Source: a virus. From it: DNA of 64,000 nt. The DNA is taken from IMG/VR virus record IMGVR_UViG_3300003663_000013. One strand, written 5' to 3'. The notes under the pieces are model-generated. The model had not been told where the DNA came from. It saw only the letters and a list, made by a program, of their open reading frames with translations, and made no database searches. Of this stretch, positions 1,929-54,655 are shown piece after piece (position 1 is the stretch's first letter; each line of letters starts with the position of its first letter). The position numbers and the translations under genes were made by a program.

Positions 1929-1975
1929 CTTTAACGATTGCAGATATGCCCAGTTTGGGATTAAATAGTAAAAAC
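1929..1975 (+). repeat. attC-like site, short type (homologous to 3243-3291)
   Basis: Reads CTTTAAC-GATTGC-...CCCAgtttGGG...ATTAAATAGTAAAAAC and aligns with 3243-3291. The small stem covaries between the copies (CCCA/TGGG versus CCGC/GCGG). Confidence 0.4.
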
Positions 1976-1992
1976 TTTAAATTATAGATAAA

Positions 1993-2295
1993 ATGAATAA
2001 AAATGTAGAAACTTCAAATGAAACACAGATACCCAAATTGGGTATATCTGATGTTATGCACTGTGATTATCAGCAAAAACTTTTTCACGAAATTGTTGGT
2101 ATGAAACACAGAATGCAAGGATTGGCTGGATTTGTCCAAAACGATTTTGATAAAATGTTGGAAGATGGTACAACCACTAAAGATGGAATTAAAGAAGCAA
2201 TTGAAGATATGGACAAATCGTTTGATAAAGTGATAAACGAAATGAATATACTTCGTGAAAAATGTAGAGTGATAATGTCTTATCATTGCGCCTAA
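1993..2295 (+). CDS. hypothetical cassette protein
   Basis: 100-aa ORF. Its TAA stop (2293-2295) lies inside GCCTAAC (2290-2296). Confidence 0.5.
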   Translation: MNKNVETSNETQIPKLGISDVMHCDYQQKLFHEIVGMKHRMQGLAGFVQNDFDKMLEDGTTTKDGIKEAIEDMDKSFDKVINEMNILREKCRVIMSYHCA

Positions 2296-2579
2296 CGGAC
2301 GAGTGTATGAATAGTAAAATTACGGATATGGAAAAAGTATATGAATTTTGGTATAACGACTGCATTTACGAAAGTGCGGCTGCTTGTATGAGTTTGCACA
2401 GAACACGCAAGGGTGCAGAAATGGCAATGGAATTTCACAAAGAGCAGAAACGTAAGGAGTTTGAAGAACTCTACAAAGATGAGGATGATATTGACTGGAC
2501 TTTTGATAGTATGAGTGCGTGGGGTGTTTCTGAAAGGGAAGTAGTTGAGTAATTTTATTATTTATACACATTGTTGTGG
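2290..2579 (+). repeat. attC-like site whose 20-bp stem encloses a whole ORF
   Basis: Layout is GCCTAAC (2290-2296), a 6-nt spacer GGACGA, the 5' arm at 2303-2322, the 3' arm at 2550-2569, ATT, then GTTGTGG (2573-2579). The 5' arm pairs with the 3' arm over 20 bp, including 2 G-T wobbles. Confidence 0.55.
2307..2552 (+). CDS. hypothetical protein (start and stop codons both inside the long stem)
   Basis: ATG at 2307 is the likely true start of track ORF 2286..2552. 81 aa with an acidic C-terminus. Confidence 0.5.
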   Translation: MNSKITDMEKVYEFWYNDCIYESAAACMSLHRTRKGAEMAMEFHKEQKRKEFEELYKDEDDIDWTFDSMSAWGVSEREVVE

Positions 2580-2603
2580 TGGCGAAGCGAACGTTTTAAT
2601 GCA

Positions 2604-2726
2604 CCACAACGGTTGGGTGTATGAGCAGTAGCCGAACACAAAACTTGATTAGAAGTAGAAACTTAAATATTAACAACTGCAATAGTTTAAACGCCTAACA
2701 GCTATTGCTTATACACTTTGTTAGGC
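2604..2726 (+). repeat. attC-like site (123 bp), ORF-less cassette
   Basis: Layout is CCACAAC (2604-2610), a 6-nt spacer, a 16-bp stem (2617-2632 with 2701-2716), TTT, then GTTAGGC (2720-2726). Homologous and equal in length to 54217-54339. Confidence 0.6.
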
Positions 2727-2735
2727 AACGTTTTT

Positions 2736-2972
2736 ATGAAAATAGCAATGATACCAGCAGATAATAATGGCAATATACTTTGGCTAAAAGAACTAAGGAC
2801 TGAAAATAGCAGGGCATTTATAAAATACAAAAGCACTTATAACGATATGCCATTTGCCGAAACTGAAATATTTGCAGTTGATGGCGGGAAAAACTTTGTA
2901 ATTACAGGCGACGACGGAACTATACTATACCGATTTTCGGCAAATTGGTTGGTTGGATTAAATGTTGCCTAA
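2736..2972 (+). CDS. hypothetical cassette protein
   Basis: ATG at 2736 is in frame with track ORF 2718..2972. The stop TAA (2970-2972) lies inside GCCTAAC (2967-2973). Confidence 0.5.
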   Translation: MKIAMIPADNNGNILWLKELRTENSRAFIKYKSTYNDMPFAETEIFAVDGGKNFVITGDDGTILYRFSANWLVGLNVA

Positions 2973-2998
2973 CGTTAAAATATAAAAAATCGTTGCGA
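2967..2998 (+). repeat. attC-like site, minimal or degenerate (32 bp)
   Basis: GCCTAAC, 18 nt, then GTTGCGA. The inverse core is the exact complement of the previous core GTTAGGC (2720-2726). Confidence 0.4.
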
Positions 2999-3000
2999 TT

Positions 3001-3249
3001 ATGAATGAGGAACTATTTGGAGAATTACACGAAGAAGAACAATATGGCTTGTTTGGTCAAGAACATCACAAGCAATGTTTTTTATATAGTGTTAGCGACC
3101 GTACTTCACCTAATAATAGGCTAAAAATAGAGCCTGTGTTTGATGGAATAAGTACAGCCGTTTCACAATATAAGGTAACTGACGACTTAGGTAGTATATG
3201 GATGGTAGGAACAAGAGAAGAATGCGATGCGTATTTGTATGGTCGCTAA
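3001..3249 (+). CDS. hypothetical cassette protein
   Basis: 82-aa ORF. AATCGTTGCGATT (2988-3000) upstream pairs with GGTCGCTAACGATT (3241-3254), which contains the stop codon. Confidence 0.5.
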   Translation: MNEELFGELHEEEQYGLFGQEHHKQCFLYSVSDRTSPNNRLKIEPVFDGISTAVSQYKVTDDLGSIWMVGTREECDAYLYGR

Positions 3250-3291
3250 CGATTGAGTGTAACCGCATGTAGCGGATTAAATAGTAATAAC
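3243..3291 (+). repeat. attC-like site, short type, core site not identifiable
   Basis: Layout is TCGC(T)AAC, a 6-nt spacer GATTGA, GTGTAACCGC-atgta-GCGGATTA, ending TAATAAC. Homologous to 1929-1975. Confidence 0.4.
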
Positions 3292-3309
3292 TTATCAAAA
3301 TAAACGAAT

Positions 3310-3564
3310 ATGAACAAAGAGCAGAATACTTCGCAAACCACAGAATCCGCTATTGCGGTTGACACTGTGTTAGCAACTGGGCTTTATTGTATTAAAGTTC
3401 AAGCTAATCATGATTGTTGGATTGCCGATTGGAATGGTGACCCTGGAAGAACATTAGTAAAAGAAAACGCAAAAACATTTAAACGTAAATCGGATGCTGA
3501 AAAGTTATGCAACGAAATGAAGATAAAATATCCAAATCGAAATGTTTGGGCCGATGTCTTTTAG
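3310..3564 (+). CDS. hypothetical cassette protein
   Basis: 84-aa ORF followed 7 nt later by TGCTAAC (3571-3577). Confidence 0.5.
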   Translation: MNKEQNTSQTTESAIAVDTVLATGLYCIKVQANHDCWIADWNGDPGRTLVKENAKTFKRKSDAEKLCNEMKIKYPNRNVWADVF

Positions 3565-3570
3565 CCTTGT

Positions 3571-3640
3571 TGCTAACGTTTTGAATATGTGGCGGCTTGT
3601 GTTGCGCCTGCGGCAAGCTGACATATATTTGTTGTTACCA
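3571..3640 (+). repeat. attC-like site
   Basis: Layout is TGCTAAC, a spacer, the stem ATATGT-GGC-GGCTTG / CAAGCT-G-ACATAT (3585-3626), then GTTACCA (3634-3640). The loop CGCCTGC can also pair with GCAGGCG at 3654-3660. Confidence 0.5.
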
Positions 3641-3711
3641 ACTGGCGGTTTATGCAGGCGTTGATTAAATGAACAGAAGTAATAATTAAATATTTTTTAG
3701 GGAGGGTTTTT

Positions 3712-4182
3712 ATGATTTTAAAACACAAAAGAGACAAGTTGCTTCAAGATATTTCAAGTGATTTGCATTTGGGTAGAATATCCGCAAAAGAAGCAATTGA
3801 AGAAGCTAATCTCTTAAATCAAACAACAATGCAAATAACGAAAGCATACAATGTGCAAATATGGGTAGGATTACAAGAAACCTACGATAAAGAAAAATTG
3901 CATACAATTAATGAAGTTGAAACCATTTGCCAAGATTTTGTAAATGAAGTTAAAGATTGTGTAACTGTAACACCAACAAAGTTTAAATATGTGAATGGGG
4001 GTGAAAACGGAGCTGTTATCGGCTGGATTAGTTATCCAAGATTTCCAAGAAAACGAAAAGAAATAAGAAAACGTGCTTTGGCTCTTGCAGAAAAATTAAT
4101 GAATGAATTAAACCAGTACCGAGTAACGGTAACAACGCCACTTAAAAGCTATATGCTTGAAAATAAAAACGTAGAACGATGA
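3712..4182 (+). CDS. hypothetical protein (first gene of a two-gene cassette)
   Basis: 156-aa ORF preceded by a strong SD-like GGGAGGG 5 nt upstream of the ATG. This is atypical for the rest of the genome. Confidence 0.55.
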   Translation: MILKHKRDKLLQDISSDLHLGRISAKEAIEEANLLNQTTMQITKAYNVQIWVGLQETYDKEKLHTINEVETICQDFVNEVKDCVTVTPTKFKYVNGGENGAVIGWISYPRFPRKRKEIRKRALALAEKLMNELNQYRVTVTTPLKSYMLENKNVER

Positions 4183-4973
4183 GCAAAGAAGACAAAGCAA
4201 TTAAATTTATAAGAACCATAGCAGCCAACACAAACAAGCCTTTATATGCAGGTAATAGTGGCGGTAAAGACAGTGCTGTAGTTGATAAGCTATTGCAGCT
4301 TAGCGGTATTGAATACCAAAGCTACTACACAAACACCACTGTTGACCCCAAAGGTACAATAAAGCATATTAGAGAGCATTACCCGCATACTGAAATACTA
4401 CACCCAAAAGAAAGCTTTTACCAACTTGTAGAGCGCAAGGGATTACCGACACGACTAAGTAGATATTGTTGTGAAGACCTGAAAGAGTATGCTTCTGTAG
4501 GAAAAATGGTGTTTGAAGGTGTGAGGAGTGCAGAAAGCAGAAAGCGACAAGGTAGAGACTACGTGCAATGCGATAATAGAAAATGGCAAAAAGGAGCGCA
4601 ACACATTTACCCGATTTACGATTGGAGTGATGAAGATGTTTATAGCTTTATTGAAAAGCACAATATTAAACTTGCACCACATTACAAATATGCAGATAGG
4701 CTTGGGTGTGTTGGTTGCCCTTTAGTAAGCAGAAAAGGACATAGAGAAAAAGAGTTTGCTATTTACCCGAAATATAGAAATGCTATAAAAAGAGCTATAA
4801 CTAAAGGAATGGCAAACAACCCACAATGGAAACTTAGTTGTGCAACTGATGGAGATGGAGAAAAAGCAATGCTATGGTGGTTGAGTGGTAAGACAATGAA
4901 CGAGTTCTTTAAACCTTACAGTTTTGAAAAAACTGAGGCGGGGTGGCAAAAATATTTAATTACGGACAAGTAA
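4179..4973 (+). CDS. PAPS-reductase-family PP-loop ATP pyrophosphatase
   Basis: N-terminal PP-loop motif NSGGKDSAVV. Length and Cys pattern are typical of phage PAPS-reductase-like proteins. The start overlaps the previous stop (ATGA). Confidence 0.65.
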   Translation: MSKEDKAIKFIRTIAANTNKPLYAGNSGGKDSAVVDKLLQLSGIEYQSYYTNTTVDPKGTIKHIREHYPHTEILHPKESFYQLVERKGLPTRLSRYCCEDLKEYASVGKMVFEGVRSAESRKRQGRDYVQCDNRKWQKGAQHIYPIYDWSDEDVYSFIEKHNIKLAPHYKYADRLGCVGCPLVSRKGHREKEFAIYPKYRNAIKRAITKGMANNPQWKLSCATDGDGEKAMLWWLSGKTMNEFFKPYSFEKTEAGWQKYLITDK

Positions 4974-5014
4974 GTACTGACCTTGATTAAATGCACTGCC
5001 TTTCTTCCGCTTGT

Positions 5015-5109
5015 TGGTAACGGACGAGTGTATGGCAAGTAAGCCACGCACGAACCTTGATATTAACCACAGAATTTGATTGGCTTATTTGCTATACACA
5101 TTGTTATGC
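5015..5109 (+). repeat. attC-like site (95 bp)
   Basis: Layout is TGGTAAC (5015-5021, the complement of GTTACCA at 3634), a 6-nt spacer GGACGA, an 18-bp stem (5028-5045 with 5082-5099), ATT, then GTTATGC (5103-5109). Confidence 0.6.
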
Positions 5110-5251
5110 AAAGTGCCTTAAAATATTGTTATGAATTATGCAGGTTTACTCAGTAATAAGGTCTGTAAGTATCGAAGATAACAGGTTCGCACTGAAAACA
5201 ATTGAAAAAGCAAAGAGAATCTGGGAGCAGACGAAGCCTTTCCTGCATTTT

Positions 5252-5349
5252 GCATAACGGGCCGGTTACATGTTGTCGAAAGCCAACCACAACCGACCGA
5301 TTCAGCGCACCGCCTTTGCATGGCTTTTGCAATATGTAACTTGTTACAA
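5252..5349 (+). repeat. attC-like site (98 bp)
   Basis: GCATAAC (5252-5258) is the complement of GTTATGC at 5103. A 6-nt spacer follows, then an interrupted stem: 5265-5275 with 5330-5340, and 5279-5285 with 5321-5327. It ends TT, then GTTACAA (5343-5349). Confidence 0.6.
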
Positions 5350-5443
5350 ATCTGGTGCGGGAAACACCACAAAAGCTGATTAAATGAGCGAACGTAAAAA
5401 AAGAAAAAAAAGGGAGGGCTTTTGAAATTATTTTATCTTAATA

Positions 5444-5475
5444 TTTGGATATTAAATATATTATCCGTATATTTG
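5444..5475 (+). promoter_or_regulatory. Bacteroidetes-type promoter
   Basis: TTTG at 5444-5447 and a perfect TAnnTTTG (TATATTTG) at 5468-5475 with a 20-nt spacer. It is embedded in a 12-bp direct repeat ATATTTGGATAT (5441-5452 and 5469-5480). Confidence 0.5.
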
Positions 5476-5491
5476 GATATAAATTAGAATA

Positions 5492-5725
5492 ATGAAACAG
5501 ATGAAAGCATATAGATTATACAAAGGATTCAACAAAATAGGAGAATTTGATTCTATTTTAGAGGCTAAAAAGAATGCGCCTAAAGAAGATGGGATTTATA
5601 ATTTGAAAGGCGAAAATTACAGAGATAGTTGGCAAATCATTAATGGAACTTATTATGGCGAACGAAACTTGGGAATACAGATTGCAGAAATCTGTGAGAT
5701 GGGATTCAGAAGATGCAATAGATGA
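5492..5725 (+). CDS. hypothetical protein
   Basis: 77-aa ORF downstream of the promoter-like box. It overlaps the next ORF in another frame. Confidence 0.45.
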   Translation: MKQMKAYRLYKGFNKIGEFDSILEAKKNAPKEDGIYNLKGENYRDSWQIINGTYYGERNLGIQIAEICEMGFRRCNR

Positions 5726-5933
5726 TGTGATTTATTTTATACAAAACGAATTTATAAACGAATGGTGTTTAACATCTGATGAAATGCCAACAATAGGGCA
5801 AAGATGCTGGTGTGTAAATGATAAAAATGATTTGTATTTGTGTATTTACTCTAAATTTTCAGTATTCCGAAAAAAACCAACCTTTAATAATATGCTTGGA
5901 AAGGGATGGGAAGTTCAGAGCGTAGTTAAGTAG
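5643..5933 (+). CDS. hypothetical protein (true start may be the ATG at 5655)
   Basis: 96-aa ORF with balanced composition. It overlaps 5492..5725. Confidence 0.45.
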   Translation: MELIMANETWEYRLQKSVRWDSEDAIDDVIYFIQNEFINEWCLTSDEMPTIGQRCWCVNDKNDLYLCIYSKFSVFRKKPTFNNMLGKGWEVQSVVK

Positions 5934-5956
5934 AAGCCGCTAAAAACACCTGAATT

Positions 5957-6127
5957 ATGATTGAGTGGTTACAAAAAAACAAGGAATTTCTTTCCATACG
6001 TGGAATTGAAAAGCATTTAGGAATGCCGGATTCAACTTTAATAAAAGCTGTAAACGGAGTTCAAAACTTACCTGAGAAATGGAAACAATCTTTGGAAGAT
6101 TTCATAAAGGTTTTGCAAAAACCTTAG
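5957..6127 (+). CDS. small helix-turn-helix-like protein
   Basis: 56-aa ORF not in the track (translated by eye). The segment LSIRGIEKHLGMPDSTLIKAVNG looks like an HTH. Confidence 0.35.
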   Translation: MIEWLQKNKEFLSIRGIEKHLGMPDSTLIKAVNGVQNLPEKWKQSLEDFIKVLQKP

Positions 6128-6239
6128 TGCGCGGGCTTTTTTCTTTTTTGGTCAAGTTGCACCGACCTATCATTTAAAAACTGTCGCAGCACTTGTTTGT
6201 AACTACTATATATCAAATTATCAATTTAATTTATTGATT

Positions 6240-6559
6240 ATGAATAAATTTGCAGAGTCAACTTTAAGAAAATATGAAAAATATCTTAAAGTTAAAAATT
6301 ACTCAGATAGAACTATTGATTTAATGGTCAAAATTCTTTACAATATAGCACTACAAGTTGTAATAAATTAGTCAAAAAATATCTTGGAGAACAATATCAT
6401 TTCCATTTACTTAGACACGCTGCATTTACTCATTTAACAGATCAAGGAGTAGATATTAGAGCAATTCAAAAACTTGCTGGACATAAATCAAGTAGGACTA
6501 CTGAAATCTATACTCAAGTAAGTACACAAGTTTTACATAAATTACCCTTGGCACTATAG
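6240..6559 (+). pseudogene. tyrosine recombinase (integrase) remnant with internal deletion and frame change
   Basis: The N-terminal fragment (6240-6371) encodes a SAM-like domain start, ESTLRKYEKYLKVKNYSDRTI. A second frame (6320-6559) encodes the C-terminal catalytic region HLLRHAAFTHLTDQGVDIRAIQKLAGHKSSRTTEIYTQ. The roughly 200-aa core between them is missing. Confidence 0.75.
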
Positions 6560-6569
6560 TAACTATAAA

Positions 6570-7151
6570 ATGAAGATATTTAAACCACATAAAGGAATTT
6601 GTATTGATTGTGATCAAGAAAAATGGATAGTAAATAGTAAAGGTCAGTGTGAAGAATGTAGATATAAGCAGAATCATGATGGAAAAACTAAATTAGAAGT
6701 ACAAATAGAGAAAGAAAAGAGTAAACCTAAGAAAACCTACCAGTTAAAAAGAACACCGTTAAAAAGGTCTAAAAAGACATTTAAACGAAGTTTTATAAAA
6801 CAAAGTAAAGAATCAAAAGAAAAAAGAGACGAAGTACTAAAAAAAGATAGAGAAACTTACTTGGAAGTATTTAATACAACCCCTAATGAATGTGAAGAAT
6901 GCAGATTAAATGGAATACATACTCCCTTACCAGATCAATTCGAAGATGAAGAAGGGAATATTATTGGTGTGTGGCAGTATTCACATATATTGGCTAAATC
7001 AAGTTTTCCTGAATATAGACATAAAGTAAAAAATTTTAATCGTTTGTGCAGGGAACATCACGATATATATGAATTCGGAGACAGAGAAAGTATGAAAATA
7101 TATAAACCAAATCAAATAATAATACAAAAACTAAAAAATGGAGAATTATGA
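6570..7151 (+). CDS. Zn-ribbon / HNH-like nuclease-fold protein
   Basis: Carries CxxC...CxxC pairs and a C-terminal HIL...N...LCREHH motif. The exact family is uncertain. Confidence 0.4.
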   Translation: MKIFKPHKGICIDCDQEKWIVNSKGQCEECRYKQNHDGKTKLEVQIEKEKSKPKKTYQLKRTPLKRSKKTFKRSFIKQSKESKEKRDEVLKKDRETYLEVFNTTPNECEECRLNGIHTPLPDQFEDEEGNIIGVWQYSHILAKSSFPEYRHKVKNFNRLCREHHDIYEFGDRESMKIYKPNQIIIQKLKNGEL

Positions 7152-7970: not shown

Positions 7971-8033
7971 CAGTAATATATTTTTAATATTAATATATAT
8001 TTTATATTTTTAATCAGATACAAATTTAGATAC

Positions 8034-9332: not shown

Positions 9333-9963
9333 ATATAATAACAGATTTATAGCTTTAGATTGTGAAACTGGGGGATTACCTAAAAGTGGTAAAATGGCAA
9401 CAGTTGATATTTCTTTGACGGAAGTAGCTCTTGTTACAATCGAAAATGAAAAATTAGAGATAATATCACAAGACAGTTGGTTAATAGCTCCCTATGATGA
9501 TAATTTAATATATGATAAAGGGGCAGAGAGGGTTTCTGGTATAAGTAAAGAAATGTGTAAAAAAGAAGGATTGCCAATTGAAGAAGTATATCAAAATATA
9601 TTAGGAGTATTAAAAGACAACAAATTAGGAAAGAACAAACCTATCTTAATAATGCAAAATAAGTCTTTTGATACTCCTTTTATTGAAAACTTATTTCAAA
9701 TATTTGGAGATGATTTATGGAAACACATAGAAAGGGTGGAAGATACTTTGCATTGGGCTAGATACCGATGGATAGAAAAACCAAAATTTAACTTAGGTTC
9801 TATAGCAGAATATTGTGAATTAGATTTAGTCCAAGCACACAGGGCATTACAAGATACACTTATAACTGCAAAAATATGGATTAACTTCATGAAAAGCCTT
9901 AGAGGAGAAAATCAATTAACACAAAAAGAAGAAGTAAAATTTAGAGAAAAATTTAAATTTTAA
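9325..9963 (+). CDS. DnaQ-like DEDDh 3'-5' exonuclease
   Basis: ExoI motif ALDCETGGL and ExoIII motif HRALQDTLITAKIW. Confidence 0.75.
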   Translation: MAKYNNRFIALDCETGGLPKSGKMATVDISLTEVALVTIENEKLEIISQDSWLIAPYDDNLIYDKGAERVSGISKEMCKKEGLPIEEVYQNILGVLKDNKLGKNKPILIMQNKSFDTPFIENLFQIFGDDLWKHIERVEDTLHWARYRWIEKPKFNLGSIAEYCELDLVQAHRALQDTLITAKIWINFMKSLRGENQLTQKEEVKFREKFKF

Positions 9964-12900
9964 TGATCGAAAAACTTGACAAAGGTGGTTCACCTCACAC
10001 TATAGAACAATTAAACTGGGTATACGAACAATTTGAGAATGTCATAGATATGTTAGACGATAAAAGCCTAAAAGAAATATCCAGTGGTTCTCAATTTGAT
10101 GTAGATAGCTTAGTTCAAATAATAGAAGAGGAGACACTTAATATATTTACAGGCATACCAGAACCAATAAATGCAAGTAAGTTCTACAATCTAACCAACG
10201 TAACAGCCAATATACATGAAACACTTAAAGTATTAAATTACAATTACTTTAAGTTAACGATGATGCCAGGGTTCTATATCTCACCACTTAGTATTGAGTG
10301 GGGGAATATAATACAGATATATGATAGGACTTGTGTGCTGGCTTCCAGGGGTTTAGGTAAGAGTTTTGAATATTCCCTCGCTTTGCCTATCTGGAAAATG
10401 TATGGTTATAGAAGACCTTCTGAATTCAATCCAGTATCTTTAGATATAGCACGTAGAAGAGAGGGGCTGCTTGTAACAAATAAATATAAATTAGGACAGA
10501 AATTATTAGGTAAGATTGCTACAGAAATTAAAGAGAATGATGCACTTCACGAGAGATTAAAGCCAGAAAGAAAAGACGAAGGAACATTAGGTAGAGAGAG
10601 AATAGAAACAAAAAATGGTTGTGAATTAAACTTACGTTCTGCTGATTCAACAGCAAGGGGATTACACCCAGATTGGATAATAATAGATGATTATGGAGAT
10701 AATAACTGGATTTATAGTCAAGAACAAAGAGATAAAGCAATAGAAACTTTTTATGGTGATATAATGAAAACAATTGAGAGAGGTGGAACTATCAATATAG
10801 TCGGTTGTGTCTCAATGGACTCAACTATTATAACAAGAGATGGATTAAGAAAAATAGGCAATTTGTGTCCTGTAGAAAATTATAAAGAAAAAGGTTTATA
10901 TGAATATGAGATAGAAGTATTAGGTAAGAATGGGTGGAATAAGACGAGTCATTATTGGTGTAATGGATTAACTAAAACTAAAAAAATAACATTAAAGGGT
11001 GGTTATGAATTAGAGTGTAGTTTAATTCATCCTTTATGGAAAATGAATGAAAATGGGTGTCCTGACTGGTGCGAATCTAAAAATTTGAAAGTTGGGGATT
11101 GGATTGCTGTAAAAGATGGATATGATTTTGATGGAGAAAAAATAGATTTAACTGAATTTTATAGTAACTATAATGTAACATATAAGCATAAAAACATAAA
11201 AATACATAATTCTGTAGATAGAGATTTAGCTTATTTATTAGGATTATATGTTGCTGATGGAAGTTTTGAAGATACAGGTAGAATTACTATAGCTAAGTCA
11301 ATAGAAGGCATTAGAAAGTTTTTGTTAGAATATGGTTTTGTGAAAGGACAAGATATCAAATTAAGATATAATAGTAAATATTTGATTGATTTAATGCAAT
11401 ATTTGGGATTTACTAAAGCAACTGCAATAAGTAAACACATACCAGAAAAAATATTTAAAGCAGATAAAGAAACATTGAAATGGTTTTTACAAGGGATGTT
11501 TGATGGTGATGGCGGTTGTTATGTAGACAAAGATAGTTCTATTCAAATAAATTATAGTAGTATAAGTAAACAATTAATATATGATTTACATAACATATTA
11601 ATGGCATTTGGCATATTTTCATCTATTAAAGAAAGACCTCCTGGAATTTCTGAAAGAGTAAGAGGGAAACATAATCTTTATAGAATAAATATTGCAGGAT
11701 ATGATTCTAGATTATTTTTGGAAAAAATAGGATTTAGGTTTAGTGGTAAATCAGATAAGGTTACAGAAGATTTATTGTCTTCTATAAGGAGTAAAAATTC
11801 ATCTTATAGAAGAATCCCACATCAAAAGGATTTAATTAAAAAAGTAAGAAAAGAAAAACCAAGAAGAAAAAGTGGTGAAGTAAGCACACTACCACCATTT
11901 CATTCTCAAGAAGTAGTAAGTCCTAATATCTCTAGAGAGTCATTAAAAATAGTATCAGATTGGTTTGTAGAAAATGGGGCTAAAGGTGAATTTACAGATC
12001 AGTTAGTTAAAAATGGTAATGAAAATTTAGTATATTTACCTATAACAAAAATAGAAGATTCAGAAAATTACACAGTTGATTTTCATATTCCAAATAAACA
12101 TAATTTTATTACAAATGGTATTGTAAGTCATAATACGCCATTCCAAGAATCTGATTTGTACGCATATATACGTGAAAACGATAAGACATTTAAGTACTTT
12201 GAATACCCTGCTGTAATGCCAGATGGAACCATTGTTGCTCCACATAGGTGGAATATGGAAGAATTAGAGAAAGAATACGAAACCAATGGTCCATTAATTT
12301 TTTCACGTGAGATTTTAGTTGTTCCTATAAGCGATGGAAGTACAATTTTCCCTTGGGATATATTAGAGAAGTCTTTTATAGGGATGCAAGATTATAGATT
12401 AGTTACTAATAGAGATAGTTTTCCTATCAAGTTCAAATTCGTCAGTGTAGGTTGCGATTTCGCAATTTCAGGAAATATAGAAAACGCAGATGCTACTGTA
12501 TTTAGCGTTTGGGGCGTGGATGATTATGAAAATTATTGGCTATTACATATTTGGAGAAAGCAAGGAGCAAGTCACAATGAACAAATAGGCAAATTAAAAG
12601 AAATTGAGAGAAATTTTAGACCTGACGAAATAGTTGCAGAATCTAATGGTTTTCAGAAAGTTATGTTGAGTATAGGTAGAGAACATGGTATTAAAAATAT
12701 AACAGATTTTAATACTACTGGTTGGAATAAGAAAGATTTATATGAAGGTTTGCCTAGTTTAGCTATATTATTTCATCAAGGTAGAATGCGTATGCCACGT
12801 GGAGATGTTCAGAGTAAAGAAATGACAGACTGGTTATGTAGTGAATTTAATAGTATCACAATTAAGCCTGATAGTGGTAAGTTGGAGAGTGCTGGACAGC

Positions 12901-12986
12901 ACGATGACGGTCCAATGAGTGCGTGGTTAGGAATAAAATGTATAAGTGCAAGTAAAGATAAAGATGTTAATTTTGTAATGATGTAA
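9963..12986 (+). CDS. terL: terminase large subunit, interrupted by an intein
   Basis: Walker A-like ASRGLGKS, Walker B DWIIIDDYGD and a C-terminal nuclease-type region. The exteins join as INIVG|TPFQESD. Confidence 0.8.
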   Translation: MIEKLDKGGSPHTIEQLNWVYEQFENVIDMLDDKSLKEISSGSQFDVDSLVQIIEEETLNIFTGIPEPINASKFYNLTNVTANIHETLKVLNYNYFKLTMMPGFYISPLSIEWGNIIQIYDRTCVLASRGLGKSFEYSLALPIWKMYGYRRPSEFNPVSLDIARRREGLLVTNKYKLGQKLLGKIATEIKENDALHERLKPERKDEGTLGRERIETKNGCELNLRSADSTARGLHPDWIIIDDYGDNNWIYSQEQRDKAIETFYGDIMKTIERGGTINIVGCVSMDSTIITRDGLRKIGNLCPVENYKEKGLYEYEIEVLGKNGWNKTSHYWCNGLTKTKKITLKGGYELECSLIHPLWKMNENGCPDWCESKNLKVGDWIAVKDGYDFDGEKIDLTEFYSNYNVTYKHKNIKIHNSVDRDLAYLLGLYVADGSFEDTGRITIAKSIEGIRKFLLEYGFVKGQDIKLRYNSKYLIDLMQYLGFTKATAISKHIPEKIFKADKETLKWFLQGMFDGDGGCYVDKDSSIQINYSSISKQLIYDLHNILMAFGIFSSIKERPPGISERVRGKHNLYRINIAGYDSRLFLEKIGFRFSGKSDKVTEDLLSSIRSKNSSYRRIPHQKDLIKKVRKEKPRRKSGEVSTLPPFHSQEVVSPNISRESLKIVSDWFVENGAKGEFTDQLVKNGNENLVYLPITKIEDSENYTVDFHIPNKHNFITNGIVSHNTPFQESDLYAYIRENDKTFKYFEYPAVMPDGTIVAPHRWNMEELEKEYETNGPLIFSREILVVPISDGSTIFPWDILEKSFIGMQDYRLVTNRDSFPIKFKFVSVGCDFAISGNIENADATVFSVWGVDDYENYWLLHIWRKQGASHNEQIGKLKEIERNFRPDEIVAESNGFQKVMLSIGREHGIKNITDFNTTGWNKKDLYEGLPSLAILFHQGRMRMPRGDVQSKEMTDWLCSEFNSITIKPDSGKLESAGQHDDGPMSAWLGIKCISASKDKDVNFVMM
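10806..12134 (+). mobile_element. intein with LAGLIDADG homing-endonuclease domain (443 aa) in TerL
   Basis: Starts with Cys (CVSMDS) and ends VSHN, followed by Thr +1. Contains LAGLIDADG blocks LAYLLGLYVADGSF and LKWFLQGMFDGDGG. Confidence 0.85.
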
Positions 12987-32195: not shown

Positions 32196-34196
32196 ATGTG
32201 GCAGCCTAGAGAACTTATTTTAGAGAATTTTCGGTCGTTTAAAGAACAAACCTTTGAGTTTAAGAAAGGTGCTTTTTTAATTCAAGGTATTAATAATACA
32301 GATGACGGTTCTGAATCGAACGGTTCAGGTAAATCTTCTTTACGTGAGGCACTTTGCTTTGTATTGGGATTACCAACTTTTAGTGACACTAATACGGATC
32401 TTATTAATAATAATGCTGATAAATGTAAGGTAGAATTTCACTTATTTAATTCTTTAACAAAAGATGATTTATTGATTATAAGAGAATTACCACTTAAAGG
32501 TAGTTCTATGGTTACTATAATATTAAATGGAATAGATCAAAAAGATCAATTTGCAACAGTAAGAGATGGTGATAAATTAATTATTGACTTAATTGGTATT
32601 AGTAAAGAAGATTTATTAAATCATTATATTGTAAGTAAAGAAAAGTTTACCTCTTTCTTTTCTTCTTCTGATACTAAAATTAAAGAACTTATTAGTAGAT
32701 TTAGTAATTTTAATAAGTTTGATGGTGTTGAAGATATTGTTCAAATAGATATTGATTTTTTAAATGAAGAACTAAAAATATTAAATGATGGATTACAAAA
32801 ATATGAAGGTAAAATTGAATATTTAAAAGAAGAGTTAATAAAAGAGAAGGAAAAGGATGTAGAAGAGGAAATAAGTAGTCAAATATCGAAGATTAATGGC
32901 GAGATAAGTAATTATATTAAATCAATTGAAGATGCGAGAGAAACTATTCAAAACAAGAAAAATAAGATATTTGAATTAAAAGGTAGAATTCCTATTCATG
33001 AAGCTAAAAAAGAAACCTTAGAGAAAGAACTTAAATCATTACAAGAAATTAAGTTTGACGATGAGATTAAGCAAATAGAAAAAAAGAAGGAAAAAGCAGT
33101 AGAACAGAAAGATATTATCAATCAAGAGATTTATAGTATAGAAACTCAATTAAAAGAGTTTAATAAATTTAAGATTGAGATTGAAACAGCAATTGAAGGT
33201 TCTATTCAGTGCCCTAAATGTTTTCATGAGTTTATTCCCAATAATGAAATTTCTATTGAAGAAGCTAAAAAGACTTTGCCCACTGTTTTAAAAGAAATCG
33301 AAGAATTTAACACTAATATTAAAAATAATTCAAGTAAAATTAGTAAAATTCAAGAGATTTTATCTAAATTGAATGAGAATTTAAGTAGTTATGAACAGAA
33401 AATCAGTGATTTTAACAAACACAAGAATAATTTATTAAATAAAATAGATGATTGTGATACTGAAATTTATAATATAAGTCGATCTATAAGCAATATTACT
33501 GGTGAAATCTCTTCTATTGAAGATAGGATTGTTCATTATAACAAAATGATTGAACAAAAGAAACAATCTATTGAAGAAATAAAGAAGCAAGAAGTTAAGA
33601 CCAAAGAAGAAGAAATCAATAAATCAATAGACAGTCTCATTGAAGAAAAATCTAAACATGAATTAAAGATTGAAGAAAAGAAAGATCAAATATTTGAAAA
33701 AGAACAGTGGGTCTTTAGATTTAAGAAATTTCGCAGTAAATTAGCGAATGAATCTTTAGATATTATACAAGGGTATGCTAATATGTATTTAGAGAACATG
33801 AAAACCAACTTAAATGTTAAAATAGAAGGATTTAGACAAAATAGAGATGGTTCTATACGTGAAAAGATTAATCCTATTGTTTTAAGAAATGGTATTCAGG
33901 AGGGTTCTGGTAACTTTAAAAAATACAGTGGAGGAGAGAGAGGAAAGATTGATATTGCAACCAGTGTATTAGCTGTTCAAACTCTTATTAATAATTCTTG
34001 TCATACAGGAGGATTGAATCTTACTTTTATAGATGAAGTATTAGAATCAGTAGACTCTCAAGGATTAGAAAGTATTGTAGAGAGTGTTGATAACCCTAAT
34101 ACTCATTTTATGGTTATTTCTCACGTAAGACATGATAAAGTTCATAATAATGTAATAACGGTTGAAAAAACTAATAATGTAAGTAAAATAATATAA
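32196..34196 (+). CDS. SbcC/Rad50-type ATPase
   Basis: Walker A NGSGKSS, a long coiled coil with a CPKC hook, signature YSGGERG and Walker B LTFIDEV. Confidence 0.75.
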   Translation: MWQPRELILENFRSFKEQTFEFKKGAFLIQGINNTDDGSESNGSGKSSLREALCFVLGLPTFSDTNTDLINNNADKCKVEFHLFNSLTKDDLLIIRELPLKGSSMVTIILNGIDQKDQFATVRDGDKLIIDLIGISKEDLLNHYIVSKEKFTSFFSSSDTKIKELISRFSNFNKFDGVEDIVQIDIDFLNEELKILNDGLQKYEGKIEYLKEELIKEKEKDVEEEISSQISKINGEISNYIKSIEDARETIQNKKNKIFELKGRIPIHEAKKETLEKELKSLQEIKFDDEIKQIEKKKEKAVEQKDIINQEIYSIETQLKEFNKFKIEIETAIEGSIQCPKCFHEFIPNNEISIEEAKKTLPTVLKEIEEFNTNIKNNSSKISKIQEILSKLNENLSSYEQKISDFNKHKNNLLNKIDDCDTEIYNISRSISNITGEISSIEDRIVHYNKMIEQKKQSIEEIKKQEVKTKEEEINKSIDSLIEEKSKHELKIEEKKDQIFEKEQWVFRFKKFRSKLANESLDIIQGYANMYLENMKTNLNVKIEGFRQNRDGSIREKINPIVLRNGIQEGSGNFKKYSGGERGKIDIATSVLAVQTLINNSCHTGGLNLTFIDEVLESVDSQGLESIVESVDNPNTHFMVISHVRHDKVHNNVITVEKTNNVSKII

Positions 34197-36757: not shown

Positions 36758-36768
36758 ATGTAAAAAGT

Positions 36769-36799
36769 TTTGTATTTAAAAATATAGTTTATATATTTA
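36769..36799 (+). promoter_or_regulatory. Bacteroidetes-type promoter
   Basis: TTTG at 36769-36772 and TATATTTA at 36792-36799 with a 19-nt spacer. Confidence 0.5.
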
Positions 36800-36849
36800 T
36801 ATCGTTAAACAAAACAAAAAACACATTATTAACTAAAAAACTAAAAGTC

Positions 36850-38499: not shown

Positions 38500-38510
38500 A
38501 TGTAAAAAGT

Positions 38511-38541
38511 TTTGTATTTAAAAATATAGTTTATATATTTA
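38511..38541 (+). promoter_or_regulatory. Bacteroidetes-type promoter (duplicate of 36769-36799)
   Basis: TTTG at 38511-38514 and TATATTTA at 38534-38541 with a 19-nt spacer. Confidence 0.5.
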
Positions 38542-38574
38542 TGCCATCAAACAAACACAAAAAAACATACTATT

Positions 38575-51951: not shown

Positions 51952-51982
51952 CCTATTTGAAAAATAATAGGCTTTATTTTTT
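51952..51982 (+). terminator. terminator candidate
   Basis: 6-bp stem CCTATT / AATAGG followed by CTTTATTTTTT. Confidence 0.4.
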
Positions 51983-52010
51983 GTTTTTAAAAATATAGTT
52001 TATATATTTA
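51980..52010 (+). promoter_or_regulatory. Bacteroidetes-type promoter
   Basis: TTTG at 51980-51983 and TATATTTA at 52003-52010 with a 19-nt spacer. Confidence 0.5.
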
Positions 52011-52050
52011 TATTGTTAAAAGAAATTGTAAAATATAAAAACAAAACATT

Positions 52051-52311: not shown

Positions 52312-52392
52312 ATGTGGCTAACGTTAAGGCATATAAACGCCATGCAACCGAATTATAATTAAAAAAGAATAATAATTAAATATTTTTGAGCG

Positions 52393-52623
52393 ATGGCAAA
52401 TACAAATGATTACGGAGGACAAGGATTAAATAGAGGTAGTTCTTTTCATATAAAAAAGCCACTTGGTGAAGGTGTGGTTTGGGGTGCGAAGGCTAAAAAA
52501 TGGCTTGTACGAATAAAAAAGAATGGAATAATATGCACAATGGGAGGATACACAGATAAGCAAATAGCAGAAAGACAATATGCCATTTGTGTGGTGGGTA
52601 AATGCACTACAACGGTACGGTAA
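52393..52623 (+). CDS. AP2-domain DNA-binding protein
   Basis: GVVWGAKAKKWLVRIKKNGIICTMGGYTDKQIAERQY fits the AP2/integrase DNA-binding domain pattern. Confidence 0.55.
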   Translation: MANTNDYGGQGLNRGSSFHIKKPLGEGVVWGAKAKKWLVRIKKNGIICTMGGYTDKQIAERQYAICVVGKCTTTVR

Positions 52624-52660
52624 TATGATTAGTTGCCATACTACGAACTTTGAAATTTAG

Positions 52661-52700
52661 TAATAACTTGACAGGCAATTAATTATATTGCTTGTTGTAA
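52661..52700 (+). repeat. attC-like site, short type
   Basis: Layout is TAATAAC, a 6-nt spacer, the stem GGCAAT / ATTGCT, then GTTGTAA (52694-52700). Confidence 0.4.
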
Positions 52701-52734
52701 AATCGTTAAATTATTATGGCAAAAAAAAGAAAAA

Positions 52735-52956
52735 ATGTTTATAGGAGATGATTGCCCAAATTGTGGATGTGGTTTAATTGTAACCACTACATGTGGGGAG
52801 GAAAATGATACAGAATTTGAACAATACTATTATGATGGTGATGAAGTTAGATGCGAAAACAATTGTGGATTTTTATCTACAGTGAGTATAAATGAAGATG
52901 GTGCATGTGCTTATATAGCAGATGGCAACTTAGATGAATTGGAGGAGTGCGAATAA
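52735..52956 (+). CDS. Cys-rich acidic small protein (cassette ORF)
   Basis: 73-aa ORF with CPNCGC...C...C...C. Confidence 0.5.
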   Translation: MFIGDDCPNCGCGLIVTTTCGEENDTEFEQYYYDGDEVRCENNCGFLSTVSINEDGACAYIADGNLDELEECE

Positions 52957-52965
52957 TTTTATGTT

Positions 52966-53098
52966 TTACAACGTATGGTGGTATGGTGTTGTAGCGGATT
53001 AGAAAGCACGAACATATCGAACTGTACGGAAGTAAATAGAAAGTAATGAACTTTGAATTAAACACAAAACCCGCTATGCATTATACCACGTGTTATCG
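52966..53098 (+). repeat. attC-like site (133 bp)
   Basis: TTACAAC (52966-52972) is the complement of GTTGTAA at 52694. A 5-nt spacer follows, then a 19-bp stem (52978-52997 with 53071-53089, one bulge), then GTTATCG (53092-53098). Confidence 0.55.
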
Positions 53099-53248
53099 GC
53101 TGATGTGGTTTAATTGCCTGAATTTCAATACGAACCACAAAACAGTTTTTATTTTTTTAGGGTAGGAAGAAAAATAATTGAAAAATGTTTTGGTTGTTTG
53201 AAACAAAAGTATTGCCTTTGACGTATAAATTAATAAAACGAATGAATT

Positions 53249-53692
53249 ATGAAAACATTTAAACTTCCATTTAGCGAAACCGAAATTGATGTAAATAACG
53301 AAGGTGTTATTACAAGAGTAAACGGATTTGACTTTATTTGTAACATTCTTGAAATGAAATTGTCTGAATATAGGTTGATGGACTTAGACAATAAAGGTTC
53401 ACATATGTTCCCATATTGGTTAGATATGTTCATTCAAGAAATAGGAACATCACTACCTGAAAATAATGATGATTTTGAAAAAATTGTTAGAACAAATTGG
53501 GAACAATGGAATACCGATGATGTTTTAATTGGTACTCAATTAGACCATTATCAATTTGGTGATGAACACATGGCACATGATATGAAAGATTATTATGGTG
53601 AATTACGTGCTAATGGTGATTTATTTCAAAGGAGATGGGATTTTGCTATTGCAGATATTGAAGTAAGAATTAAAAGTGAGCAATATGTCTAA
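53249..53692 (+). CDS. hypothetical protein
   Basis: 147-aa ORF with balanced composition. Confidence 0.55.
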   Translation: MKTFKLPFSETEIDVNNEGVITRVNGFDFICNILEMKLSEYRLMDLDNKGSHMFPYWLDMFIQEIGTSLPENNDDFEKIVRTNWEQWNTDDVLIGTQLDHYQFGDEHMAHDMKDYYGELRANGDLFQRRWDFAIADIEVRIKSEQYV

Positions 53693-53840
53693 GCGAATAT
53701 CACTAAAACTGACTGACGAGAATGATTGGTTGGTTGATAAACTAAACGAAGAAAAAGAAAAACAAAATAGACCAAGTTTTAATAATATGGCAGAGACTAT
53801 TTTGGTTGAGTATTTTGAAGAGCGTGGGCAAAAACAATGA
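53685..53840 (+). CDS. ribbon-helix-helix (CopG/Arc-like) DNA-binding protein
   Basis: 51-aa ORF (translated by eye). MSKRISLKLTDENDWLVDKL...NMAETILVEYF fits a beta-strand plus two helices. Confidence 0.45.
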   Translation: MSKRISLKLTDENDWLVDKLNEEKEKQNRPSFNNMAETILVEYFEERGQKQ

Positions 53841-54145
53841 TTATGATACTTAGTTTTGAAATTACAATGCCTAATGTCGGTAGCTGGAATGGCAAATGGA
53901 CTGGTGCTGAAAACCTTCACTTTGCTTTTAGAAATATGTCTAAAAAAGAAGTTGAAACTTTTATGGAAGGTAAGGAGCATAAGAATTTTTACTACAACTT
54001 TGGCGATGGTTGGGGAGCAAACGTTAAAGTAAAACCAATAGATGCCAAAACAAAAAATAAGATTCAGCGTAAAAATTCTGGATTTATGGGCTATGATTGG
54101 ATGATTGATAGCATATTTGAACACGGAAAGATTATTGTTGAGTGA
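53837..54145 (+). CDS. hypothetical protein flanked by 15-bp direct repeats
   Basis: 102-aa ORF. GAGCGTGGGCAAAAA occurs at 53820-53834 and again at 54144-54158. Confidence 0.55.
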   Translation: MIMILSFEITMPNVGSWNGKWTGAENLHFAFRNMSKKEVETFMEGKEHKNFYYNFGDGWGANVKVKPIDAKTKNKIQRKNSGFMGYDWMIDSIFEHGKIIVE

Positions 54146-54168
54146 GCGTGGGCAAAAAGTTCATACGA

Positions 54169-54202
54169 GCTACAGCGCATTATTTATATAATGAGTTGTA
54201 GC
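54169..54202 (+). repeat. attC-like site, minimal hairpin
   Basis: GCTACAGC, 18 nt, then GTTGTAGC, giving an 8-bp stem with one G-T pair. Confidence 0.4.
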
Positions 54203-54216
54203 ATCGTTTAAATGTG

Positions 54217-54339
54217 CTACAACGTTAAGTATATGGCAAGTAGCCGAACACGAATGATGAACAAAGATATAAATATTAATAACCAGCAGATAGTTTCTAA
54301 AACGCCTAACACGGCTATTTGCTATATACATTGTTAGGC
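54217..54339 (+). repeat. attC-like site (123 bp), ORF-less cassette, homologue of 2604-2726
   Basis: CTACAAC (54217-54223) is the complement of GTTGTAG at 54195. A 5-nt spacer follows, then an 18-bp stem (54229-54246 with 54312-54329), ATT, then GTTAGGC (54333-54339). Confidence 0.6.
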
Positions 54340-54349
54340 ACAGTTAATT

Positions 54350-54556
54350 ATGGCTTATACAAAAAATTACACAGAAAAATTTAAAGTTGGTGACAAAGTT
54401 AAGTTAACCAAGAAAGTTGATTCAATGGCTGGATATTTCCCAAAAGGGGATATAGTTGAAATATGTGATATTGACGACACGAGAGGATACGGTTTTAAAG
54501 ACGAACATGGTAACAGAGTGATAGAATGTGGATGGGATTGCTGCACTTCTATTTAA
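54350..54556 (+). CDS. hypothetical cassette protein
   Basis: 68-aa ORF bracketed by GTTAGGCACA (54333-54342) and TGTGCCTAAC (54558-54567). Confidence 0.5.
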   Translation: MAYTKNYTEKFKVGDKVKLTKKVDSMAGYFPKGDIVEICDIDDTRGYGFKDEHGNRVIECGWDCCTSI

Positions 54557-54560
54557 TTGT

Positions 54561-54577
54561 GCCTAACTACTATATAT
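54561..54577 (+). repeat. terminal inverse-core plus junction GCCTAAC-TACTATATAT
   Basis: Same junction as TTGTAAC-TACTATATAT at 6197-6213. Followed by a roughly 45-nt relic of the recombinase gene start (ATG at 54600, TCAACTTTAAGAA at 54622-54634). Confidence 0.5.
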
Positions 54578-54655
54578 AAGTAAGTAAGTATAAATTCTTA
54601 TGTATTAATGCTTTACAAGTATCAACTTTAAGAATTTGGAATAAAAATAATAAAA

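Follow-up and report, generated by a model that had tools for sequence, protein, structure and literature searches.

A shared junction with decayed recombinase genes ends two putative integron-like cassette arrays in a phage genome

The IMG/VR virus record IMGVR_UViG_3300003663_000013 was analyzed over a stretch of 64,000 nucleotides (nt), referred to here as the window, in which two arrays of small open reading frames (ORFs) and hairpin sites end at the same junction next to the remains of a tyrosine recombinase gene. These junctions are most probably the recombinase-proximal ends of two integron-like phage arrays whose Xer-type recombinase genes have decayed. With less assurance, although we still favor it, we propose that they belong to a second, phage-borne kind of integron. 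In such a system, an Xer-like recombinase that lacks the insertion of the integron integrase IntI would capture and excise self-expressed cassettes through hairpins of the coding strand, and would insert them at an attI-like site that closely precedes the recombinase gene.

Results

A shared junction at the ends of both arrays

Array I ends with TTGTAAC (6197-6203) followed by TACTATATAT (6204-6213), and array II with GCCTAAC (54561-54567) followed by the same TACTATATAT (54568-54577). Both ends fit the pattern RYYYAAC|TACTATATAT (6197-6213 and 54561-54577), and all junction coordinates given for the two arrays in a preliminary description of the window agreed with the sequence. The identical 13-mer that had been noted behind both junctions, TCAACTTTAAGAA, is present each time (6258-6270 and 54622-54634) and lies exactly 54 nt past the junction; owing to this equal offset the two junction regions align without gaps. 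The compound pattern TAACTACTATATAT-N44-TCAACTTTAAGAA occurred at only two places in the window, the two junctions themselves, and in 0 of 100 dinucleotide-preserving shuffles, even when three mismatches were allowed. A chance origin of the shared compound junction is excluded, and the similarity claimed for 54600-54640 persists in the alignment. The ATGs that had been placed about 35 nt past both junctions fared differently: the one at 6240 is the gene start, whereas the one at 54600 (ATG TAT TAA) is a coincidence, the codon aligned with ATG 6240 in the gapless register being ATT at 54604. The parts of the two junctions, listed by position in the window, are the following.

6197-6203, + strand: TTGTAAC, the R'' box with which the last cassette of array I closes; it complements GTTACAA (5343-5349) and forms the junction's left half
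6204-6239, + strand: attI-like site and recombinase leader, copy I (TACTATATAT plus 26 nt), with TAnnATATAT kept in ~27 relatives
54561-54567, + strand: GCCTAAC, the R'' box with which the last cassette of array II closes
54568-54603, + strand: attI-like site and leader, copy II (TACTATATATAAGTAAG...), aligning without gaps to 6204-6239

The attI-like region of the window does not fold by itself. Its second copy, with the leader, resembles the loci L002 and L003 (TATTATATATAAG...) among the relatives described below, and searches of GenBank phage DNA with both junction regions gave no match.

Recombinase remnants in the window

The gene behind the first junction had been read as the SAM-like start of a tyrosine recombinase that continues, after an internal deletion and a frame change, as the catalytic C-terminus, and this reading held. 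The N-terminal remnant gave a weak Pfam SAM-like match, and the C-terminal piece matched Pfam PF00589 (Phage_integrase, E 1.4e-14, profile positions 115-170 of 172), the second frame reading ...FNGQNSLQYSTTSCNKLVKKYLGEQYHFHLLRHAAFTHLTDQGVDIRAIQKLAGHKSSRTTEIYTQV...LAL* from 6314. Junction and first 27 codons (6194-6319) were 76% identical to positions 2190-2317 of locus L021, and 6314-6556 was 75% identical (tblastn) to residues 186-266 of the near-full-length relative L001. According to these alignments ~158 codons were lost together with the frame change, and the deletion junction falls inside 6314-6320. Judged against the invariant columns of the family alignment, copy I lacks Arg-I and the catalytic Lys of the beta-hairpin. 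It retains only HxxR, H and Y, and neither window copy has the catalytic R-K-H-R-H-Y series in one frame.

Behind the second junction ~31 nt of coding sequence (54604-54634) and a 36-nt leader survive, rather than the ~45 nt of gene start that had been estimated. The TCAACTTTAAGAA motif codes for a conserved STL(R/E), as in L018-L021 and L025. A tblastn search with a family member found no further recombinase copy in the window. With copy I deleted and frameshifted and copy II reduced to ~10 codons, the recombinases are dead, as had been proposed; the local system in the window is enzymatically dead and its enzyme was lost twice. Because both genes are destroyed, the arrays could be moved only by an enzyme supplied in trans.

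6240-6320, + strand: N-terminal remnant of recombinase pseudogene copy I (codons 1-27, MNKFAESTLRKYEKYLKVKNYSDRTID; frame 1)
6314-6559, + strand: C-terminal remnant of copy I in another frame (residues ~186-266, with HxxR, H, Y and stop)
54604-54634, + strand: last piece of recombinase gene copy II (~31 nt, ~10 codons, ending in TCAACTTTAAGAA), the remainder being deleted
6570-7151, + strand: ORF downstream of the copy I remnant, 40% identical to L020 8027-8500, the gene that follows an intact recombinase (ending at 8018)

Since the ORF at 6570-7151 resembles the gene that follows the L020 recombinase, array I is the orthologous locus. For the gene behind array II, a search brought up no relatives.

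Intact relatives at the same junction

A word-indexed protein search with the window remnant gave three short matches, one of which led to the metagenomic contig L001. This contig has a 266-codon gene with a single in-frame TAA, preceded on its strand by an array of small ORFs. Homologues were present on 36 viral contigs, some of up to 640 kb, and on seven contigs of metagenome-assembled genomes (MAGs). Most were intact, with 265-270 amino acids and 51-73% identity, and the catalytic R, K, H, R, H and Y were invariant in the aligned intact relatives. The preliminary description had proposed to look for an intact homologue and for a full-length gene at the same junction, and both were found: the ~266-amino-acid gene lies on the same strand, 35-55 nt after the site and downstream of an array of hairpin cassettes, in ~27 viral loci.

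In these loci the site has the form xxxxAAC|TAnnATATAT. The four bases to the left of AAC vary from locus to locus (GCAT, GCCT, TGCT, ACAT, TTAT, CTAT, GGCT, GGGT and others), and in L008, L010, L011, L012 and L014 near-identical right flanks are joined to unrelated left flanks, the homology starting at TAAC|. The constant right flank, the break of the left flank at TAAC| and the arrays of cultured phages that abut one site (see below) support the earlier suggestion that AAC|TACTATATAT is the equivalent of attI. As in integrons, the arrays would thus end at an attI-type primary site adjoining the recombinase gene. The intact relatives also support the view that each array of the window once had its own same-strand recombinase 3' of the last core.

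In a scan of one genome per species the junction was found only with the best matches, which had 48-60% identity and lay on MAG contigs mostly binned as Bacteroidota. The many chromosomal homologues of Bacteroidota, with 46% identity or less, were parts of longer proteins and lacked the junction. Decay of the recombinase is recurrent: stop codons interrupt the reading frame in L001 and L021, and L031 and L032 lack the 5' part of the gene. In L034 (3930-5258) the gene is interrupted by an insertion of ~860 nt, a decay independent of that in the other relatives.

Two further arrangements were observed near the recombinase gene. In L001 (2353-2400) the attI-like motif stands in tandem, CACTAAC|TATAATATATAAAACATATAAC|TATAATATAT, and the three cassettes before it are paralogues that share the hairpin and the N-terminal codons. 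A second tyrosine recombinase, ~31% identical, directly follows the array-linked one in L022 (2129-2665) and L023 (1155-1691).

Type of the recombinase

The recombinase has a SAM-like N-domain and a catalytic domain only, and by sequence and structure comparison it is Xer-like. The NCBIfam models for XerA, XerC and XerD gave 187, 151 and 146 bits, below their cut-offs of 220, 335 and 330, which leaves the protein outside the dimer-resolution families as these models define them. The integron-integrase model TIGR02249 matched in two pieces with 129-143 bits (cut-off 265). The best matches in the PDB were XerA 4a8e (E 9e-34) and 5hxy. The IntI structure 2a3v also aligned in two pieces (query 9-181 to chain 6-181, query 217-259 to chain 265-307), and since ~48 IntI residues were unmatched, the IntI insertion, for which a check had been suggested, is absent. 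The enzyme is therefore not an IntI-clade integrase with the additional domain.

These could also be true cassette arrays that are moved by another enzyme, such as host XerC/D, a bacterial IntI or a distant phage recombinase, while the adjacent recombinase is otherwise employed, for example in multimer resolution. Host Xer enzymes do act on folded single-stranded phage DNA, as in CTX phage, and the arrays persist beside a decayed gene in five or six relatives as well as in the window. Still, classical integrons are uncommon in Bacteroidota, the hosts of these phages; gene, site and array remain tightly linked, with order and spacing unchanged, even where the enzymes differ by up to 50-64%, and the attI-like site directly abuts the gene, as it does in integrons. 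The experiments of Qi et al. (2023; PMC9892861), in which some attC-like sites, including sites from a Polaribacter phage, were recombined by IntI1 in E. coli, are in line with an enzyme from elsewhere, but given the conserved linkage we consider this explanation improbable.

Array differences among cultured Polaribacter phages

The nearest phages in GenBank were the Polaribacter phages Freya_1 to Freya_10 and the Cellulophaga phage Ingeline, whose 'integrase' was 34-36% identical. Freya_1 and Freya_10 have flanks of 99.9-100% identity, and Freya_10 holds, between ATTGTTTACAAC| and |ACCCCTATAACAACAATAAG and 55 nt before the integrase ATG, an insert of 4.9 kb that contains hairpin sites and 12 small ORFs and ends with ATTGTTGCTAAC|. 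The isolates carry no array (Freya_1) or the arrays A (Freya_2), A-B (Freya_5), A-B-X (Freya_6), A-C-D (Freya_8), A-B-C (Freya_9) and A-B-C-D (Freya_10). All of these arrays end as xxxAAC|ACCCCTATAACAAC, with the same attI-like sequence 55 nt before the integrase ATG, and five different left partners are joined to this one site. Cassette B is precisely missing from Freya_8, the end points lying within CAAC and the sequence differing on both sides. Freya_6 (MT732468; L132/L133) has a cassette of two small ORFs, ending with ACTACCAAC|, that is not in Freya_10, which has the longest array, and the isolates therefore differ by cassette gain as well as loss. Integron-like insertion and excision are thus visible among isolates of one phage species from one host strain. 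The HNH gene downstream of the Freya integrase is not homologous to the window ORF at 6570-7151.

GenBank labels the homologues of Freya and Ingeline as integrases, and Bartlau et al. (PMC8776804) read the Freya gene as a sign of temperate potential, with no mention of the cassettes. The gene might accordingly be, or have been, an ordinary lysogeny integrase, the conserved upstream sequence being its promoter or attP and the hairpin arrays being unrelated; the resemblance of TAnnATATAT to a -10 box fits such a role. An attP, however, would be constant on both sides, and the left flank changes exactly at AAC| in close relatives and between near-identical isolates. The 266-amino-acid Xer-type protein has no arm-binding domain beside its SAM-like N-domain and catalytic domain, gene and arrays co-occur in ~27 loci, and the chromosomal homologues are without the junction. 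The window phage, in addition, brings its own replisome and ribonucleotide reductase, and the junction occurs in it twice. As the intact homologues sit at the same junction and on the same strand, after a cassette array, they are not ordinary lysogeny integrases with unrelated attP sites; homologues of that ordinary kind would, according to the preliminary description, have refuted its view. We give lysogeny very little weight.

Anatomy of the cassettes and the folding strand

On the + strand the sites of the window and its relatives have the order aTTGnnnnTAAC, a spacer of 5-6 nt (e.g., ggttg), L'' (~18 nt), loop, L', 2-3 nt and GTTAnnnnCAGT, with loops of ~0 to >100 nt. They are concentrated upstream of the recombinase gene, on the same (+) strand. 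The cassettes run from spacer, L'', loop, L' and GTTRRRY through the ORF to RYYYAAC, and are bounded by attC-type R''-L''-loop-L'-R' hairpins with AAC and GTT. Among 143 putative cassettes, 81 had a GTTRRRY at the start and a RYYYAAC at the end that were complementary at all seven positions. Frequently the ORF has its stop codon in the TAA of TAAC. An ATG was found upstream of R' in 63 of the 128 ORF-bearing cassettes, usually in the loop, which often contains an ATG and possibly a promoter too. All cassette ORFs read toward the attI-like site and the recombinase gene, and the cassettes are thus not of the promoterless type that reads away from attI and is driven by the cassette promoter (Pc).

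A family of hairpins with ~90% identity in five places (arrays I and II of the window, L003, L007 and L015) has a variable RYYY before AAC and a constant GTTAGGCA after L', and a cassette of 495 bp with 99% identity between L007 and L024 has AAC at both borders. Together with the ATGs upstream of R', these comparisons define the cassette as the unit of spacer, L'', loop, L', GTTRRRY, ORF and RYYYAAC. A cut at G|TT of R' would part many ORFs from their start codons, and all three lines place the crossover at the AAC of the 5' box; the end points, resolved within (C/T)AAC, agree with an exchange at AA|C in the 5' R box on the strand that folds. The classical top-strand reading, with cassettes of the form TTRRRY...G, was rejected, as the hairpin moves together with the R' and ORF that follow it and the loop often contains the ATG.

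The ~90% identical hairpins lie in unrelated phages (window 2605-2727 and 54218-54340, L003 9513-9636, L007 883-1018, L015 8151-8276). They have an extra GCCTAAC directly 5' of L', which could pair with their own R' GTTAGGC as a short alternative hairpin.

Mismatches in the stems, collected by a search that allowed Watson-Crick pairs only, were G.T or T.G in 169 cases vs. A.C or C.A in 20. With DNA parameters the + strand was more stable in 65 of 67 sites (mean -14.0 vs. -11.7 kcal/mol), and its fold was likewise favored in single sites of the window. By the G.T bias and the fold stability, it is the strand with AAC as its 5' end that folds. In classical attC sites the recombinogenic bottom strand starts with AAC in the same way. 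The stems are asymmetric, with a 5' spacer of 5-6 nt vs. a 3' spacer of 2 nt and recurrent G.T pairs, and have no clear bulged bases.

As the folding strand is the coding strand and a G.T wobble would be G.U in RNA, the hairpins could instead be RNA-level or regulatory elements, acting in processing, stability or translational control (cf. the promoter-stem-loop modules of T4-type phages) and shuffled by homologous recombination between repeats. Start codons in the loops and one exchange with an end point at R' rather than AAC (see Discussion) would suit this explanation. It is at odds with the excision in Freya_8, where the end points lie within the 4-nt CAAC and the flanks outside it differ, leaving no long homology for recombination, and with the five left partners that are joined to one hairpin-free attI-like right partner. 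The R boxes moreover have the AAC and GTT triplets typical of integron attC sites, and Rfam gave no match. This RNA-level explanation is in our view highly unlikely.

Cassette arrays of the window

Within the window a cassette was taken to extend from just past one AAC up to the next AAC, which gave the following limits.

1927-1935, + strand: first R''-type box (ATCTTTAAC), 5' limit of array I, followed by a hairpin with L'' CAGATATGCCCAGTTTGG and L' CCAAATTGGGTATATCTG
1936-6203, + strand: array I, eight cassettes with AAC ends at 2296, 2610, 2973, 3250, 3577, 5021, 5258 and 6203
52316-52322, + strand: first R''-type box GGCTAAC, 5' limit of array II
52323-54567, + strand: array II, four cassettes with AAC ends at 52613, 52972, 54223 and 54567

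R' and R'' are complementary over 7 nt in seven cassettes of array I: GTTGTGG 2573/CCACAAC 2604, GTTAGGC 2720/GCCTAAC 2967, GTTAGCG 3091/CGCTAAC 3244, GTTAGCA 3369/TGCTAAC 3571, GTTACCA 3634/TGGTAAC 5015, GTTATGC 5103/GCATAAC 5252 and GTTACAA 5343/TTGTAAC 6197. The same holds for two cassettes of array II (GTTGTAA 52694/TTACAAC 52966 and GTTAGGC 54333/GCCTAAC 54561). The third cassette of array II has the non-complementary boxes GTTATCG/CTACAAC and may, given this mismatch, be a fusion of cassettes; a 15-mer, GAGCGTGGGCAAAAA, occurs in it twice (53820-53834 and 54146-54160), right after two consecutive ORFs.

L' and R' sit within ORFs in the cassettes 2974-3250 and 3251-3577. In the cassette 2297-2610 a complete ORF of 81 codons (2307-2552) lies in the hairpin loop, and only 24 nt extend from R' GTTGTGG to R'' CCACAAC. 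The cassette proteins are mostly of unknown type; the ORF 4179-4973 has a phosphoadenosine phosphosulfate (PAPS)-reductase domain (PF01507, E 4.6e-14) and forms a two-gene cassette with the ORF 3712-4182. In the last cassette of array I the ORFs 5492-5725 and 5643-5933 share 83 nt, read in different frames, and may be one frameshifted gene. The G+C fraction is 0.35-0.36 in array I (2001-6000) vs. 0.26-0.31 in the backbone, which fits cassettes from a pool outside the genome.

Phage context

The window belongs to a large phage that encodes a terminase, a DnaB-like helicase, a DNA polymerase, an SbcC-like nuclease and a ribonucleotide reductase, with all genes on one strand. Scans of the window for tRNAs and against Rfam gave no match. 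The SbcC-like subunit (32196-34196, PHROG 77) is of a nuclease that cuts palindromes and hairpins, in a genome with many long DNA hairpins. The ORF of the terminase large subunit (9963-12986) is unusually long, with 1007 amino acids, of which only residues 714-1002 match terminase; its N-terminal part has weak matches to endonuclease and helicase families. A promoter-like AT-rich repeat occurs at 1297-1385, 51958-52045, 36768-36809 and 38510-38542, with 78-97% identity between copies. One copy lies one gene upstream of each array, at array II just past a terminator-like hairpin.

Discussion

Proposed mechanism

In these integron-like arrays, xxxxAAC|TAnnATATAT would be the primary site, equivalent to attI, and in intact relatives the Xer-type enzyme of ~266 amino acids is encoded 35-55 nt downstream of it. 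The coding (+) strand would fold such that RYYYAAC pairs with GTTRRRY and L'' with L', and cleavage by the recombinase would fall on AA|C in the 5' R box or beside it. By exchange with the attI-like site in double-stranded form, a new cassette would come to lie immediately before the recombinase gene; exchange between two hairpins would excise a cassette. We infer both the single-stranded DNA substrate and the exact bond that is cleaved.

Several points weigh against this proposal. The role of the recombinase as catalyst of the rearrangements is itself something we infer from sequence comparison. TAnnATATAT holds a TATAAT-like hexamer and may serve, in part or in full, as promoter of the recombinase gene. 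The Freya integrase shares only 36% identity with the family of the window and has a different attI-like sequence. A hairpin module shared by L007 (2059-2211) and L034 (2457-2608) is 99% identical up to GTTATA| of R', with different ORFs after it, and some exchanges must therefore end at or near R' or have come about by homologous recombination. The G.T-biased pairing of the coding strand would be expected of an RNA structure no less than of single-stranded DNA. The hairpin detector gives background in AT-rich DNA, and the chaining of cassettes is imperfect. Finally, dead genes beside intact-looking hairpins in the window are equally compatible with a recent loss of the enzyme, with its supply in trans and with a role of the hairpins other than recombination.

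Significance

Integron-type recombination of folded single-stranded sites is thought to need IntI with its special domain. If a plain Xer-type system does work, this chemistry arose or persists outside IntI, and the phage enzyme would be a minimal model for it. The 'integrase' genes of flavobacterial phages, now read as signs of lysogeny, would then need reinterpretation, as would the integrase-free attC clusters of virulent phages. Such a system would give virulent phages of Bacteroidota a store of accessory genes with fast turnover, which is already visible between the Freya isolates, and would explain the swapping of small accessory, possibly anti-defense, genes within a single bloom. For the window it would explain both array ends. 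Freya isolates and their host are in culture, which makes the idea directly testable.

Comparison with known systems

Full-text searches of a literature collection turned up no account of phages that have a dedicated Xer-like recombinase together with an attI-like site, which does not prove that there is none. Small gene modules at short or stem-loop sites that are shuffled between replicons are known as pdif modules in Acinetobacter plasmids and as promoter early stem-loop (PeSL) cassettes in T4-type phages. The phage cassettes resemble both in being small modules bounded by short sites and shuffled. They differ from pdif modules, which are flanked by double-stranded Xer sites in alternating orientation, and from PeSL cassettes, which have neither a dedicated site-specific recombinase nor an attI-like site.

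The closest relatives in sequence and structure are XerA, XerC and XerD, which act at dif. The exchange of one strand of a folded single-stranded hairpin by Xer enzymes has precedents in CTX phage and other integrative mobile elements exploiting Xer (IMEX). Unlike the Xer-dif systems, the enzyme described here is encoded by phages and scores under the curated cut-offs, its locus has no dif-like 11-6-11 site, and it stands beside cassette arrays rather than a single site.

Clusters of attC sites lacking integrases (CALINs) have been described in virulent phages, including the Polaribacter phage P12002L, with attC-like sites between small ORFs; they were considered integrase-free, and a transfer of bacterial integron parts was proposed (Qi et al., 2023; PMC9892861). 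The present arrays share with them the attC-like sites among small ORFs of flavobacterial and other phages, but they are, or once were, linked to a dedicated non-IntI recombinase with its own attI-like site.

The closest parallel in organization is with the classical integron, although the preliminary description had regarded the layout as different. This is so for the cassette ORFs, which in the phages lie on the folding strand, read toward attI and often start in the hairpin loop, with the recombinase gene downstream and co-directional. For the recombination sites it is not: their geometry is conserved, and only the cassette ORFs are inverted. Read on its bottom strand, a classical integron has the order ...RYYYAA|C-hairpin-GTTRRRY-(antisense ORF)-RYYYAA|C-attI-intI(sense), and the folding-strand order ...AAC|attI-recombinase(sense) is identical in the phages. 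Both systems have a tyrosine recombinase gene next to a primary site that ends the array, cassettes bounded by imperfect hairpins with R boxes (RYYYAAC/GTTRRRY) and L boxes, a crossover at the AAC of the 5' R box of the folding strand, and the newest cassettes nearest the recombinase gene. Because the phage ORFs are inverted, a Pc promoter at attI cannot drive them. In contrast to classical integrons, the recombinase lacks the IntI insertion and scores best as XerA/XerC/XerD-like, and the preference for one strand appears to be set by G.T pairs and a longer 5' spacer, where classical attC sites have extrahelical bases on the 3' arm. The carrier, in this case, is a phage.

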